Of a stretch of 64,000 bases of DNA, positions 3,001-64,000 are shown piece after piece. Under the pieces are notes generated by a model. It was given only the letters and a program-made list of their open reading frames with translations, ran no database searches and had not been told where the DNA came from. Numbering within the stretch: the stretch's first letter is position 1; each line of letters starts with the position of its first letter. The stretch spans positions 224,001 through 288,000 of the forward strand of contig JBGANV010000001.1 of NCBI GenBank assembly GCA_044222185.1, read 5' to 3'. Both the position numbers and the translations under genes were made by a program. Origin of the DNA: Planctomycetota bacterium (GTDB lineage: Bacteria > Planctomycetota > GCA-002687715 > CAIWVZ01).

Positions 3001-4145
3001 CGGCGCGATTCGACGCGCGATTGGTGCTCGAGGACGGAACGATCTTCTCGGGACGTGCGTTCGGCGCACGCGGTGAGGCCAGCGGCGAGATCGTGTTCAA
3101 CACGAGTCTCACGGGCTACCAGGAGGTTCTCACCGATCCGTCGTACCGCGGCCAGATCGTCGTGATGACCTCCCCGCTCATCGGAAACACGGGGATCACG
3201 CTGGAGGACGACGAGTCCGAGCGCCCGTGGCTCTCGGGGTTCGTGGTCCGCGAGTTGTCGGCGATCGCGAGCAACTATCGATCGAGGGAGTCGCTCTCGG
3301 ACTGGCTCGCGCGCAACCACATCCTCGGGATCGAAGGGCTCGACACGCGCCGGCTCACGCGGAAGATCCGCGACCAGGGCGCGATGACGGCGCTGATCTC
3401 GACCGAGGTGACCGACCCGGACGAGCTGATCCGTCGCGTGAAGGCTGCGCCACCGCTCGTGGGGCGCGACCTCGTCAAGGAGGTGACCCGCGGCAAGCGG
3501 TTCACCTGGAGCGAGGCCTACGACCGCGAGATGCAGCCCGCCCTCGCACCGGCGGGAGCGACCGGCCGCCGCCCCAAGGTCGTCGCGATCGATTACGGCG
3601 CGAAGGAGAACATCTTCCGTTCGCTCGTGGACGTGGGATTCGACGTCGTGGTCCTTCCCAGTACGGCGAGTTGCAAGGACGTGCTCGCGGAGAGTCCCGA
3701 CGGGGTGTTCCTCTCCAACGGACCTGGCGACCCGAGCGTCCTCGCGAACGAGGTCCAGACGATCCGCGACCTCCTGGGGAAGAAGCCGATCTTCGGCATC
3801 TGCCTCGGGCATCAGCTCCTTGGCCAGGCGATCGGAGCGAAGACGTTCAAACTCAAGTTCGGGCACCACGGCTCGAACCAGCCCGTGAAGAACCTGCGGA
3901 CGGGCCAGGTGGAAATCACGGCACAGAACCACGGATTCGCCGTGGACCCCGCGTCGGTTCCCCAGCCGCGAGCCAAGGTGACACACATCAATCTGAACGA
4001 CGGCACGTGCGAAGGCCTGGAGTTGCCCGGGGAGTCGGCGTTCAGCGTCCAATATCACCCGGAAGCGGCGCCCGGTCCTCACGATTCGCTGTACCTGTTC
4101 CGCCAGTTCAAGGCTCTCGTCGACGCCAGCCAGGGAGCGGCCTGA
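2997..4145 (+). CDS. carA: Carbamoyl-phosphate synthase small subunit
   Basis: LVLEDG, GEIVFNTSLTGYQEVLTDPSY, SNGPGDP, GICLGHQ, QNHGF, QYHPEA; ATGA overlap with larB stop. Confidence 0.97.
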   Translation: MTARFDARLVLEDGTIFSGRAFGARGEASGEIVFNTSLTGYQEVLTDPSYRGQIVVMTSPLIGNTGITLEDDESERPWLSGFVVRELSAIASNYRSRESLSDWLARNHILGIEGLDTRRLTRKIRDQGAMTALISTEVTDPDELIRRVKAAPPLVGRDLVKEVTRGKRFTWSEAYDREMQPALAPAGATGRRPKVVAIDYGAKENIFRSLVDVGFDVVVLPSTASCKDVLAESPDGVFLSNGPGDPSVLANEVQTIRDLLGKKPIFGICLGHQLLGQAIGAKTFKLKFGHHGSNQPVKNLRTGQVEITAQNHGFAVDPASVPQPRAKVTHINLNDGTCEGLELPGESAFSVQYHPEAAPGPHDSLYLFRQFKALVDASQGAA

Positions 4146-59087: not shown

Positions 59088-61250
59088 TCACTTGAAACCG
59101 GCCAGGCTGTTCGGCGCGCCTTCGAGGCGGAACTCGACGAAGTAGCGCGCTTCCTTCCGGTCGCGGACCTGGAAGCTCATGAGGCACACGAGGGTCGAGC
59201 CCTTCTCGACGGAGACCTTCGTCGCCTCCGACGACTTGGGAACTACGACGGGGTTGACGTTCGGGACGGGGATCAGCGCTCCTGAGGTCGCCTTCAGGTA
59301 GAGCCCCTCCTGGGCCTGGATCTTCTCCTTGCCCTGCATGATCGTGTGGCCCGTGGACCACATGACGCAGTAGCTGCCCTTCGGAACGGCGCCGTTCATC
59401 AGATCAACTTCCGTCGCGAGGAAGCCCAGCAGGATCGGGCTCTTCTGATCCCGTGCGAGCGTCTTCATGCGCGCGGCATCCACGAATTCCTTCGTGTCGC
59501 GAATCGCAAGCGCGATGTTCTTGGCGCGGGCCGGGAGCTGTTTCTCGGCGTCCCATCCGCCGGTCATCACACCGCCGAGCTTCGACGCATCGTCCATGGC
59601 GATGCGCGGCATGTCCTTCTCGTCCTTCAGCGGCGGGCCGCTGTCCTTCATGCGCGCCGCGATGAGGTTTCCGCCGGCGATGCGCTCGAGGTAATCGCGG
59701 CCCTTCGCCTTGGACGCCGCCACGCGGAATCCGACGAGCTCGGCTGAATCCTTGACGCGCGCCGTGCGCCATGCGGAGGTCACGCAAAGGTCCGGGTGAA
59801 GCGCACCGCCACCGCGCAGTGTGAGCAGGCCCGAGCTGAACTCGGGTTGGGCGGCGCCCTTCGTGGGGCACTTGTCGGGGCTGTAGCCCGGATAGGCCTC
59901 GAACTGGCTCGACGTCATCTCGAGGGCGTTGCCGGCCATGTCGTTGATGCCGAGTGCCGACTTCCCGCCTGGGAACGACCCAACGGGGAGGAGCTTGTTC
60001 TTGCCTTGCCGGTTCGGGTGGGCGGCCGCGCTCTGGTTGTTGCACACGGGCTTGCCGCGATCGTAGTCGTCACCCCACGGGAAGATGTGGTTCGCCTTGT
60101 CGTTCGCGCCCTTGGCCCGGGCCGCCGCTTCCCACTCGAACTCGGTCGGCGGGCGGACGCCGCACCACTCACAGAAGGCGACCATGTCCTCGTAGGTGAC
60201 CCACGTCACCGGGTAGTCCTCCGTGCCCGGAGCCGGGACGCGCTCGCCCGAGGCGGCGGTCGGAGCCGCCGCGGCCTGCTGTTCCGTGGGGCCTGGGCCG
60301 GGACCCGCCGGAGCGGTGCCCACGGAGGCGGGTGCGCCGCCCTTCGGCGCACCTGCGCCATCGACGGGCACCCAGTGCTTGGGCGCCGCATGGCCCGTGT
60401 CCTTCACGAATTCGAGGTACGCGCGGTTCGTCACCTCGTTGATGCCGATGTAGAAGTCGTCGATCTGTACCTCGCGTGCCGGCCACCCGATGCCGGCCTG
60501 GAAGTTCAGCCCCTGGTCGCCCGAGTAGGAGAGCAGCTTGCGGAGTGCCGTCTGCTCGTCGGTGTCCATCCCGATGCGGACCTTGCCACCGGGTACGAAG
60601 ACCATTCCCGGGGGAGCGCCGAGGGCTCGGGCCTTCGCCGTCGCCGCGAGGTCGTCCATCCGGCGTTTCAGCGCGGCCATCTCGTCCTGGACCTCGGTGA
60701 GTTTCTTCTCGAAGGTCGGGGCCATCTTCTTGTAGGCCTCGTCGAAGTTCTTCGTCTCGAAGACCTCACCCAGCGTTTCACCGACGACGGCCCCGTAGTT
60801 CACGGGCGCGTCGCTCCTCAAAGCGTCGAGGAGTGCCGCCGACATGGGGACTTCGAGGACGAGCGAGAGGTTGCGCCCGATGGTCGTGGCGATCGCTTCG
60901 CGGACCTCGGTCTGGACCGTGGTGTAGACCTGAGGCTTGGCGCCGGGCTTGCCCCCGGCTGCAGCGGCCATCTTGGCGGCTTCCTGGACCTGAGTTCTGT
61001 ACTTCGTCCCGGTCTCCTCGAGCTTCTTCGCGAGGCTGCCCTTCGTGTCGGCGTTGCCAGCGTTCTTGAACTCGACGGCGACCGCTTCCTTCTTCTTGTT
61101 GGCGCGATCCTGCTCTTCCTTGATCCGGGCTTCGACCTTCTTCATCTCGGCCTGGATCTTGGCGCCCTCGTCCTGACCCGATGCGAGCGTCGAGCACGTC
61201 AGGATGAGGATCAGCAGGGCAAGCGTATGGCGCGGGCGCGCATCGAGCAT
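59088..61250 (-). CDS. Exported FGE-sulfatase (SUMF1) domain protein with N-terminal coiled coil
   Basis: Signal ALLILILTCSTLASG; K/E-rich helices; GMVFVPGG, EVTN, PVTWV, PTEFEWEAAAR, FPWG, DMAGNALE, GFRV; alternative start 61280. Confidence 0.85.
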   Translation of the reverse strand: MLDARPRHTLALLILILTCSTLASGQDEGAKIQAEMKKVEARIKEEQDRANKKKEAVAVEFKNAGNADTKGSLAKKLEETGTKYRTQVQEAAKMAAAAGGKPGAKPQVYTTVQTEVREAIATTIGRNLSLVLEVPMSAALLDALRSDAPVNYGAVVGETLGEVFETKNFDEAYKKMAPTFEKKLTEVQDEMAALKRRMDDLAATAKARALGAPPGMVFVPGGKVRIGMDTDEQTALRKLLSYSGDQGLNFQAGIGWPAREVQIDDFYIGINEVTNRAYLEFVKDTGHAAPKHWVPVDGAGAPKGGAPASVGTAPAGPGPGPTEQQAAAAPTAASGERVPAPGTEDYPVTWVTYEDMVAFCEWCGVRPPTEFEWEAAARAKGANDKANHIFPWGDDYDRGKPVCNNQSAAAHPNRQGKNKLLPVGSFPGGKSALGINDMAGNALEMTSSQFEAYPGYSPDKCPTKGAAQPEFSSGLLTLRGGGALHPDLCVTSAWRTARVKDSAELVGFRVAASKAKGRDYLERIAGGNLIAARMKDSGPPLKDEKDMPRIAMDDASKLGGVMTGGWDAEKQLPARAKNIALAIRDTKEFVDAARMKTLARDQKSPILLGFLATEVDLMNGAVPKGSYCVMWSTGHTIMQGKEKIQAQEGLYLKATSGALIPVPNVNPVVVPKSSEATKVSVEKGSTLVCLMSFQVRDRKEARYFVEFRLEGAPNSLAGFK

Positions 61251-61687
61251 GGGAGTTCGCTCCGGCGAAGGGTGATTCATTCCGTCATCGGCGGACCGTG
61301 CGGGTCGGTGGCCGGGCCGAATGCCGAGCCGAACCGGACCGTCGATCCGCGGGCTGCACCTTGGTTTCGCACCACGCCACGATGCCCGGACGCCGACCAC
61401 CGAGCGCGTTCGCTCGTGATTGGCCATCGGGGTGGGAAAGTGCCATGTCGGGAAGTCAGGGCTCAGAGTGTTTGGGAACCGACATGGGGGCCGAGGAGTG
61501 GCTCCATCCTTGGCACGAGGTGTTGGCGCAGAGTCTACGGGCGCCGACCCTGGAAGCAAGCGCTCCGCGGCACCCGCGAAGCCCCGCTTCACCCCGGTCT
61601 CCTGACGCCCGGACCGTCCATGGAGGGACGGACGGCCTGGGCTCCCCGAGGTGACAGCGGACCCGCGGAGACGGTCTCAGCGCCCGT

Positions 61688-63139
61688 TCAGTTGATCGTG
61701 AACTGGCGGCCGTTCGACAGGCGGACCCCGCCGTCTCGGTCGACGGTCACCGCTTGCAAGTACACGGGCAGCCCGGAGATGCCTGGGGCGACGGGGATCG
61801 TGAACCCGGCGGAGGCCTGCCCGGCGACGCTCCCCGTGCCGCTCGCGAGAACGTCGAACGGGGGAGTCAGCAGGACGGTGTGGGGCCCGGCGATGATGGG
61901 GCCGGCCCCGGACAACGAGACGTAGATCGCCCAGGGGGACTGGAACTCGCAATTCGCGACGCCCAGGGTGAGGCCGGCCCCCTGGTTGACGGTCGCCGGC
62001 GCCGTGAGCGAAAGGGCATAGTTCGGAAGGTGGCAGAGGACGTCGACGCGGGTTCGGCCCTGCATCGAGACGACGATCCGGCTCCCGTCCTGGGTGAAGA
62101 CGGCGTCGTTCGGGCGCGCCGTGCTGCCATGGTCGTAGACACTCAGCACGCCGAACGTGGCGAGATCGACGAGCACGGTCTCGCCCCCGTTCAGCGACGT
62201 GACGGCCGCGGTCGTTTCGCTCGCGTTGACTCCGAGTCCGTGGAGCACGATGCCCGTCACGGTGTTCAGGTTCAGCGTGCGGAGAACGGCGCCCGTCGTC
62301 AGGCTGCACTCGTAGAGCGTCGGAAAGACCTCGAATCCCACGGTCACGAGGACCCGATTGCCGCTGATGACGTGCGCCTCGTACGCCGCCGTGTAGTGGT
62401 TGACGATGGGCTGGGTGATGGCGTACGGGGTCTGATTGGACGGATTCGTGACGTCGACGATCGTGAACCCCGCGATGGCGAAGGAGAACGTGGGGTCGTA
62501 GGTCGACGTGGGGACGACCATCAGCGGCCAGGTCCACCAGGACGGGCGTCCGCCACCGCCGACGACGGTGAAGGAGCTGAGCCGCGTGTTGAACGTCGGG
62601 CTCGTCGGGTCGACGTCGAGGACCTCGACGACGTCGCAGCCGCCGACGGTCGTCACGTAGAGCCGTGTCTGGTCCGGCGAAACCAGCAACCCGAACGGGA
62701 AGCTCCCCTGGAAGACCGAGCCGAAGCAGGGCGACAGGGCGATCGTCGCGATCGGTTGGAGGTTCGGGAGCAGGCACGTCACGGTCCCGCTCGTCGAATT
62801 CGAGACGTAGAGGTGCCGCGTCGCACCGGATGCGTCGCGCAGGACGGCGATGTCCTCGGGGAACAGCCCCGTCTGGCCGATCGCGGTCTGCGCACCGGTG
62901 AACAGGTCGAAGGAGACCACGTCGTCGTTGTTCGGCGCCGTGCCTGGGAACGACAGCTCGCCCGCGATGGTGGCGTACGCATGGACGCCATCAGGATCGA
63001 GAGCGACGCCGAATCCCTTGTCGGGGGACAGCGGGTCGCCGTCGTTCAGCATGAAGCTGCGTTCGAGCGACTGCGCGGCGAGCACTTGGGGAATGACGAA
63101 CGCGATGCCCAGGACCAGGGCGAAGGAAAGGACTTTCAT
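61688..63139 (-). CDS. Secreted YncE/YVTN-type beta-propeller protein with shared C-terminal domain, under cobalamin riboswitch
   Basis: Signal MKVLSFALVLGIAFVIPQVLA; blades GLFPEDIAV, LYVSNS, FPFGLLVSPDQTRLYVT, RPNDAVFTQDGSRIVVS. Confidence 0.85.
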   Translation of the reverse strand: MKVLSFALVLGIAFVIPQVLAAQSLERSFMLNDGDPLSPDKGFGVALDPDGVHAYATIAGELSFPGTAPNNDDVVSFDLFTGAQTAIGQTGLFPEDIAVLRDASGATRHLYVSNSTSGTVTCLLPNLQPIATIALSPCFGSVFQGSFPFGLLVSPDQTRLYVTTVGGCDVVEVLDVDPTSPTFNTRLSSFTVVGGGGRPSWWTWPLMVVPTSTYDPTFSFAIAGFTIVDVTNPSNQTPYAITQPIVNHYTAAYEAHVISGNRVLVTVGFEVFPTLYECSLTTGAVLRTLNLNTVTGIVLHGLGVNASETTAAVTSLNGGETVLVDLATFGVLSVYDHGSTARPNDAVFTQDGSRIVVSMQGRTRVDVLCHLPNYALSLTAPATVNQGAGLTLGVANCEFQSPWAIYVSLSGAGPIIAGPHTVLLTPPFDVLASGTGSVAGQASAGFTIPVAPGISGLPVYLQAVTVDRDGGVRLSNGRQFTIN

Positions 63140-63296
63140 CGGGACGCTCCGGGGCGACGGAAGGCCGCCCCACGGGTACCGAGGTCAATCGCGGACGATG
63201 ACTTCGACGTGGAGCGCACGGTCGCTCGGCGCAAGTGCGCCGCTGCCGGGACGCCACCTCCAGCTCCTGACCTCGAGGAGCTTCAGAAGTCCAAAT

Positions 63297-63440
63297 CCCA
63301 GGCAGGTATCCTGACTCATGGCCGCCGACGGAAGGCGTGTTGCACGCACTCCGACGGCACCATTCACAGTGGCGGGTCCGCGACGGATTCGCACCGTCTT
63401 CCCCCCGCAACCCCAGCGATGGGGCTGCGGCTCCGCGGCG
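63297..63440 (-). ncRNA. Cobalamin (B12) riboswitch
   Basis: Minus strand reads hairpin CCGCAGCCCC/GGGGTTGCGG, GGGAAG-ACGGTGCGAATCCGT, CCCGCCACTGTGA, and B12 box GAGTCAGGATACCTGCC in canonical order. Confidence 0.93.
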
Positions 63441-63661
63441 ATCGACCGCGAAGCGCACCGGGATCGGCCCGTGGTCGCACGGGCGGGGCGGAGTCTATGC
63501 TCGACGCGATTGCGGATCAAGCGATCGAGACCGGGGTGCCGCCGGTCGACCGTCGGTCTCGAAACGTGCATCGCTCCGAACCCGTGACGGGCGAAACCCT
63601 TCATCCGCGTCGCGGTCCATGCCGACGTATACACTTGGTGTCGATTGGGAACGGGGACGCG

Positions 63662-64000
63662 ATGGATCCAACCGAGCGGACAACCGAGGGTGAGGGCGGA
63701 GCGGCATCGTTCCGACTCGTTGCTGAGCCCGCCGACGCAGGGCGGCGGCTCGATCACGTCCTCGCCGAAAGGCTGCCCGCGCACTCGCGCACGCTGCTGA
63801 AGAAGCTGGTGAAGGCCGGCGGCGTCCAGGTGAACGGCGCGGCGGTCAAGCCGAGCCACAAGCTCGAAGCCGGCGAGGTGATCTCGGGCGACACGAGCAC
63901 CCTGCCGACGGACGACCTGAAACCTCAGCAGATGGATCTGCGGATCCTCCACGAGGACGCAACCGTACTCGTCATCGACAAGCCGCCCGATCTCGTCGTG
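63662..64000 (+). CDS. rluD: RluA/RluD family pseudouridine synthase (3' truncated; absent from ORF track)
   Basis: Own translation from ATG 63662: GRRLDHVLAERLPAHSRTLLKKLVKAGGVQVNG (S4 domain), LRILHED, VIDKPPDLVV. Confidence 0.85.
   Translation, partial: MDPTERTTEGEGGAASFRLVAEPADAGRRLDHVLAERLPAHSRTLLKKLVKAGGVQVNGAAVKPSHKLEAGEVISGDTSTLPTDDLKPQQMDLRILHEDATVLVIDKPPDLVV

Follow-up and report, generated by a model that had tools for sequence, protein, structure and literature searches.

The locus

We analysed a 64,000-nucleotide stretch of the Planctomycetota contig JBGANV010000001.1 (positions 224,001 to 288,000 of the forward strand; this whole stretch is referred to below as the window, and its own numbering is used), in which a cobalamin (vitamin B12) riboswitch and a single gene for an exported beta-propeller protein form a transcription unit on the minus strand. 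The riboswitch aptamer lies at 63284–63430 (minus strand) and matches Rfam family RF00174 over the full length of the model (positions 1–189), with a score of 57.4 bits, where the gathering score is 31.5, and an E-value of 1.3e-11; an Rfam scan returned this element as the sole match at the gathering threshold in the window. The outer helix of the RF00174 alignment shows non-standard pairs in the window element. Between the 3' end of the aptamer and the propeller ATG, on the same strand, are 144 nt of leader (63140–63283, minus strand) that comprise the expression platform and a ribosome-binding site, with GGAG 7 nt before the ATG. In the minimum free energy fold of this leader, GGAGC of the ribosome-binding region is base-paired to a GCUCC that lies immediately 3' of the aptamer, a weak signal by its z-score of -2.18; and no intrinsic-terminator-like sites or promoters came from a scan of 61300–63800. 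Judged by this predicted fold, control is likely to be exerted at the level of translation, with the ribosome-binding site becoming hidden on B12 binding. Sludge metatranscriptome run X20 holds two 151-nt contig records over 63248–63468, covering the aptamer, and run X19 one short contig over 62448–62598, inside the propeller coding region; these RNA-library contigs give neither strand nor level and are too little for a claim of expression, and nothing follows from the stretches that they do not cover.

The propeller gene (61688–63139, minus strand, with its stop codon at 61688–61690) starts with ATG and encodes 483 amino acids. The N-terminus is hydrophobic, is modelled as a helix at residues 2–15 and has no cysteine within residues 1–30; with the family alignment this marks a signal peptide without a lipobox at residues 1–22 (63074–63139, minus strand). 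A hydrophobic run precedes a conserved glutamine column in 42 of the 51 aligned family members, this glutamine stands directly after the predicted cleavage site in 48, and a lipobox-like motif is found in three.

An AlphaFold model built on 51 relatives (predicted local distance difference test, pLDDT, 94.4; predicted template modelling score, pTM, 0.90) resolves the mature protein into a propeller at residues ~23–372 and a beta-sandwich at residues ~373–483. The propeller (residues 23–372; 62024–63073, minus strand) is seven-bladed, of the YVTN/YncE type and acidic; from the strand order, the N-terminal strand is taken to close the ring. The family profile matches solved YVTN propellers (1l0q_A, E 1.5e-27; 5c2v_B, 7.9e-21; YncE 3vgz_A, 2e-9), and the model aligns with seven-bladed propellers over 282–306 residues at Z 35–37.6, among them hydrazine synthase beta (5c2v_B; Z 37.6, root mean square deviation [rmsd] 2.3, 300 aligned), Lp49 (Z 36.5), the seven-bladed designer propeller 7big_A (Z 36.1, rmsd 1.9, 282 aligned) and YncE (3vgz_A; Z 35.7, rmsd 2.3, 303 aligned). 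By sequence profile and modelled fold, therefore, the family belongs to the YVTN/YncE-type propellers. A Pfam search assigned the protein to no family at E<=1, and a single-sequence NCBIfam search gave YVTN/propeller repeats only, all below cut-off; no catalytic or enzyme family signature was found in either. The isoelectric point (pI) is 4.48 and lies between 4.05 and 4.94 in 41 of 41 family members. A clustered protein collection yielded 22 relatives, those with names carrying the label Planctomycetota or 'YncE'; representatives at E<=0.001 numbered 231, of which 20 were at E<=1e-30.

A preliminary description of this DNA had recognized a canonical B12 riboswitch and a secreted YncE-like propeller without a lipid anchor, and both identifications hold on the Rfam score, the cysteine-less N-terminus and the matches to YncE by profile and fold. 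It had also placed the riboswitch upstream of the gene, which is correct, at a distance of about 160 nt, which the measured 144 nt replaces.

Conservation of the riboswitch–propeller pairing

Of 400 other Planctomycetota genomes searched with the propeller, 43 gave a match. Twenty-nine were examined as loci (E<=1.4e-12), and 14 with only short single-blade or tail matches were left out. An RF00174 match above cut-off lies upstream of the propeller homologue, on the same strand, at 28 of these 29 loci, which come from 13 families and 21 genera. In 26 of these 28 cases the protein match begins 96–499 nt after the aptamer; in the remaining two, 931 and 1140 nt separate them and another secreted-protein open reading frame (ORF) intervenes. 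The 29th locus (G286) has a 28-bit RF00174 match 88 nt upstream of the gene. Scores of the homologue riboswitches reach 122.9 bits and are 36–43 bits in the closest family, f1. Among nine metagenome loci the riboswitch is present at four, one of these at only 27% protein identity, and at one of the nine the sequence ends before the gene start. Outside the order to which the window belongs, the riboswitch and the propeller are all that the loci have in common, the neighbouring genes being different. The pairing of riboswitch and propeller is not due to chance; the preliminary description had named homologues never linked to B12 loci as the finding that would count against it, and the opposite was found, with a riboswitch-like element at 29 of 29 loci.

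One genome (G094) carries two RF00174 matches in tandem upstream of a single propeller gene (L026:3042-3230 and 3440-3601, minus strand; 106.8 and 34 bits); there the propeller gene is followed on the same strand by genes for a 797-aa Big_5-domain protein and a 419-aa ORF.

The B12 regulon and its import genes

Among the candidates scored, the 29 genomes hold 34 RF00174 matches, one or two each, and 30 of these precede the propeller, the tandem pair of G094 counting as two; 24 of the 29 genomes gave no second match. The remaining four matches each head a btuF-btuC-btuD-like operon, three of which begin with a gene for a PduO-type cobalamin adenosyltransferase. The propeller is the main riboswitch target in these 29 genomes and, because the other four matches head btuFCD-like operons, the regulon is one of uptake or salvage only.

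Import genes also lie directly beside the propeller. A Peripla_BP_2 (BtuF-like) gene follows it immediately in four genomes (G033, G063, G088 and G069) and at metagenome locus L007, and in G069 a gene for an FecCD (BtuC-like) permease comes next. With G067 (below) included, such btu-type neighbours occur at five of the 15 annotated genome loci outside the window's order and come from three families. In NCBIfam the binding proteins have BtuF among their best matches and the permease has BtuC as its top match, no score reaching an equivalog cut-off. The BtuF-like proteins encoded after the propeller (L064:7126-7977, minus strand; L067:7121-7981, minus strand; L007:4937-5812, plus strand) have lipobox-like N-termini, with a cysteine after a hydrophobic stretch, and are probably membrane-anchored binding proteins. 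In G067 (L073:2587-8990, plus strand; the same as L038) the order is btuC-like and btuD-like genes (FecCD-ABC_tran), a CobA/HemD fusion, a 249-aa ORF, the riboswitch, a gene for a HEAT-repeat secreted protein and then a more distant propeller homologue, which is without the C-terminal domain described below. The annotated propeller neighbourhoods contain no TonB-dependent receptor. Of the two contexts that the preliminary description had proposed to look for, behind B12 riboswitches or next to TonB-dependent receptors, the homologues thus occupy the former (28 of 29) and, in the annotated neighbourhoods, not the latter.

A second unannotated secreted family, of ~340 aa, belongs to this regulon. 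In G194 its gene (L059:9374-10381, minus strand) lies between the riboswitch and the propeller, and further members were found at L104:1792-2853, L105:1832-2860, L106:287-1312 (minus strand) and L107:1852-2898. In a sister family that has no propeller match (f3), a gene for a ~340-aa protein stands behind the only riboswitch match in four of five genomes, and a BtuF-like gene does so in the fifth; the f3 and G194 proteins share 44% identity (E 6e-50).

At two loci the propeller is followed on its own strand, after 72–146 nt, by a ThiC gene (L066:6262-7599, minus strand, in G271; L071:6404-7747, minus strand, in G331). The two genes may share a transcript controlled by the B12 switch, or their adjacency may be accidental; no thiamine pyrophosphate riboswitch was reported in the scanned parts of these two loci. 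Identity of this ThiC-family gene with BzaB/BzaF was considered and rejected, the proteins scoring above the NCBIfam ThiC cut-offs and below that for BzaB.

The C-terminal immunoglobulin-like domain

Residues 373–483 of the propeller protein (61691–62023, minus strand) form a C-terminal immunoglobulin (Ig)-like beta-sandwich. A hidden Markov model of residues 368–483 matched 127 other stop-to-stop ORFs of the host genome at a domain E<0.01 and 71 at E<1e-4, and in 61 of these 71 the domain is at the extreme C-terminus. The preliminary description had held this domain to be shared, and the 127 ORFs bear it out. The proteins that carry it range from 300 to 3363 aa; examples are C1:730112-730510, C1:735811-736209 and C8:102726-103127. 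One ORF (C1:1324424-1325803) has three copies in tandem. Within the propeller family the domain is present in 51 of 51 aligned members. Modelled alone it gives a generic Ig-like sandwich (pLDDT 88.5), and its fold matches are to generic Ig-like domains only (best Z 9.7 by VIA; best E 6.8e-5 by Foldseek). It has no Pfam or NCBIfam family; at E<=0.1, none of 20 such domains matched any NCBIfam sorting-domain model, that for the type IX secretion system tail included; and the nearest Atlas clusters are unnamed Planctomycetota proteins. From its distribution the domain looks like a phylum-specific C-terminal tag of exported proteins, and its C-terminal position across many such proteins fits a tag for sorting or anchoring. 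Export by way of this tail, as the preliminary description proposed, is not supported by any match to a known sorting-domain model.

Neighbouring genes and the host genome

Downstream of the propeller gene, at 59088–61592 (minus strand), is a gene for a secreted protein that has an FGE-sulfatase domain and, at its N-terminal end, a long part resembling a coiled coil; valS is a further neighbour, and an S4-domain ORF, incomplete at the window end, lies divergently upstream of the propeller unit. That no btuB, btuFCD or B12 enzyme gene stands beside the propeller, as first described, is confirmed by these neighbours. The FGE-sulfatase gene, valS and the S4-domain gene keep their positions at nine loci of the same order. 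We considered the FGE-sulfatase gene as an operon partner and rejected it: because it is kept within this order only, together with valS and the S4-domain gene, its adjacency is probably synteny by descent.

The host assembly is of 7.08 Mb and 93.8% complete, and near-identical DNA is present in activated-sludge metagenome runs X2 and X3, both of one study. Eighteen matches to the B12-binding domain PF02310 were found in this genome, 14 of them over the cut-off, and neither CbiC nor CobS was found in it; for these reasons the host seems to be auxotrophic for cobamide and a heavy user of B12. A search for CbiC across 401 Planctomycetota genomes was positive in 37, none of them among the 44 that have a propeller match; about four of the 44 would be expected by chance to have it, an inference that kinship among the genomes weakens. 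The host genome has one TonB-dependent receptor, on another contig, whose best NCBIfam model is not BtuB, so that no BtuB-like gene was found by BtuB-model match. PF16819, the BtuG family, had no match at E<=0.001 anywhere in the host genome, window included, and PF14717 (DUF4465) had none in the genome. At another site on contig 1 is a btuF-btuC-ATPase-like operon, for which no riboswitch came up at E<=0.1. The genome holds at least one RF00174 match; the single one detected, with 150 of 492 candidates scored, is the window element.

Comparison with known systems

The BtuG proteins of Bacteroides thetaiotaomicron are described as surface B12-capture lipoproteins of Pfam family PF16819/DUF5074, the apo form of BtuG2 being PDB 3DSM (PMC10404256). 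They are portrayed as seven-bladed propeller lipoproteins that form a lid on BtuB and hold B12 in a central cavity (PMC10404256, PMC6143338), and BtuG2 is described as binding the corrinoid, which is positively charged, on a face of the propeller that is negatively charged (PMC10404256). The planctomycete propeller resembles BtuG, its closest counterpart in proposed function, in being seven-bladed, exported, acidic and controlled by a cobalamin riboswitch along with B12 import genes. Unlike BtuG, it does not match PF16819 and lacks a lipid anchor, and no BtuB TonB-dependent transporter lies next to it or can be recognised; it carries the C-terminal Ig-like domain, is mostly encoded by a stand-alone gene and comes from a different phylum. 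The suggestion that it might be BtuG-like therefore stands for the fold class and the riboswitch regulon and fails for family membership: with PF16819, the lipid anchor and BtuB all lacking, the propeller is like BtuG at most by analogy, and is not a BtuG. The uniform acidity of the family would fit the electrostatic attraction described for BtuG2, as weak evidence.

Closest by profile and fold are the YVTN/YncE propellers (E. coli YncE 3vgz, 1l0q, 5c2v_B and Leptospira Lp49, 3bws), with Z of 33.7–37.6 and identities of 12–20%; one of these, the Methanosarcina surface-layer (S-layer) YVTN+PKD protein 1l0q, combines a propeller with an Ig-like domain as the window protein does. None of these four is known to us to be riboswitch-controlled or linked to B12. 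Well-known cobalamin riboswitch regulons include the E. coli btuB leader, btuFCD, cob genes, metE and nrd. The RNA family, RF00174, and its place in a 5' leader are the same here, and in these Planctomycetota the main target, often the only one detected, is a secreted propeller of an unannotated family, where those regulons have btuB, cob or metE. In regulatory and ecological role, further parallels to what we propose are BtuH and BtuJ/DUF4465 (a beta-jelly roll) of Bacteroidota and beyond, which are reported as secreted proteins that scavenge cobamides from within riboswitch-controlled B12 loci (PMC13398666, PMC8941943); their folds are other than that of the propeller, and their genes are described as lying mostly beside those for TonB-dependent transporters (PMC13398666).

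Proposed function and alternative explanations

We consider it probable, from the conserved context of the gene, that its product has a direct role in extracytoplasmic cobamide acquisition and is repressed by B12. When cobamide is ample, the leader RNA would bind it and the gene would be turned off, probably through a hidden ribosome-binding site. When cobamide is scarce, the acidic seven-bladed propeller with its Ig-like tail would be made and exported to the periplasm or the cell surface, where it would serve the first step of acquisition. It would most likely bind corrinoids and hand them to an ATP-binding cassette (ABC) importer of the BtuF/BtuCD type, taking over the job of BtuB–BtuG of Bacteroides in an organism without a recognisable BtuB. 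Direct binding of cobamide by the propeller is somewhat less certain than a role in acquisition.

Several observations weigh against this proposal. No sequence relation to known B12 binders was found, either by Pfam at E<=1 or in the genome searches with PF16819 and PF14717. When the propeller faces were compared by loop classes taken from the model strands, mean conservation was 0.44–0.48 for the D-A and B-C loops and 0.44–0.53 for the A-B and C-D loops; this comparison sets no single face apart, no pocket can be named, and the most conserved propeller residues are mostly structural to the repeat. Acidic pI values are common among secreted proteins. Three fold searches (Foldseek, VIA wide, and VIA over the top 1000 of Foldseek) had no BtuG chain among the best 50 matches of each, an absence that neither supports nor excludes similarity, and the matches listed are generic seven-bladed propellers. 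Four of the nine metagenome loci, at 27–34% identity and three of them partial matches, are without a riboswitch. Related genomes are not independent samples; and because the whole-genome riboswitch scans scored 150 of the 492 candidates in the host genome, G000, and some 60 candidates in each of the other genomes, a riboswitch counted as the only one of its genome is a lower bound. The ThiC gene downstream of the propeller in G271 and G331 is left unexplained by a role in acquisition.

Some of these points would equally suit a propeller that is induced by B12 starvation and does not bind the vitamin, its extracytoplasmic role being instead in corrinoid release or remodelling, as the partner of an outer-membrane channel or in attachment to B12 producers. 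Riboswitch control and a neighbourhood of uptake genes fit any function in B12 acquisition; the propeller has no conserved pocket-like face; among solved structures its closest relatives (hydrazine synthase beta, Lp49 and the archaeal S-layer YVTN protein) are subunits of enzymes or surface proteins rather than vitamin binders; and the ~340-aa secreted family, which is in the regulon and sometimes in the same operon as the propeller, could be the actual binder. We nevertheless regard a non-binding propeller as unlikely, if by no means negligible. The propeller is the only riboswitch-controlled gene found in 25 of the 29 genomes (G094 with its tandem pair counted), which would leave a helper regulated without its binder; the protein has no catalytic family signature; and BtuG is described as a seven-bladed propeller able to bind B12 very tightly (PMC10404256).

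It is very improbable that the gene provides a B12-independent substitute for a B12-dependent function, in the manner of metE or nrdAB under B12 riboswitches. Cobalamin riboswitches are known to repress B12-independent isoenzymes elsewhere, but this protein is exported and matches no enzyme family, it is encoded beside btuF/btuC-like genes in three families, and the riboswitches found in these genomes otherwise control only genes for B12 import and adenosylation; we are also not aware of any B12-dependent process outside the cytoplasm of these organisms for which this protein could stand in. That the gene codes for an ordinary secreted propeller with no connection to B12, behind a riboswitch match that arose by chance or is a decayed remnant, is scarcely credible. 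The scores are modest, with 57 bits in the window and 36–43 bits in family f1, and non-standard pairs occur in the outer helix; however, the window element scores well above the gathering threshold, the 29 genomes have only one or two RF00174 matches each, and the conserved homologue loci contradict a chance match, place and strand being kept at 28 of 29 loci from 13 families with scores of up to 122.9 bits.

Significance

A riboswitch-controlled extracytoplasmic B12-acquisition protein that belongs to an unannotated family and has no TonB-dependent partner would be new, and with a riboswitch pairing that recurs across Planctomycetota the propeller described here is a strong candidate for one. 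A search of the full-text literature (few subscription journals; supplements not covered) found no published riboswitch-controlled YVTN propeller in Planctomycetota. More tentatively, we suggest as a possibility, and one that is rather less likely than not, that many Planctomycetota lacking both B12 synthesis and a BtuB-type receptor take up cobamides independently of TonB. They would do so through an acidic YVTN propeller that is a B12 binder independent of BtuG, is held at the surface or in the periplasm by a phylum-specific Ig-like tag found on more than 100 exported proteins, and feeds a BtuF lipoprotein and BtuCD, with the ~340-aa secreted family accompanying or replacing the propeller.

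Most of the Planctomycetota sampled have no corrin-ring synthesis (CbiC in 37 of 401), yet the host of the window has many B12-dependent enzymes, and how such bacteria pass a 1.3-kDa vitamin across their unusual envelope without BtuB is, to our knowledge, unanswered. The propeller family is the one gene that the B12 sensor consistently controls in these lineages. If it does bind B12, it would be a second, independently evolved vitamin trap of the propeller type and could provide a new high-affinity B12-binding scaffold; it would also aid the reading of B12 cross-feeding in activated sludge, soils and waters, the habitats of these bacteria.

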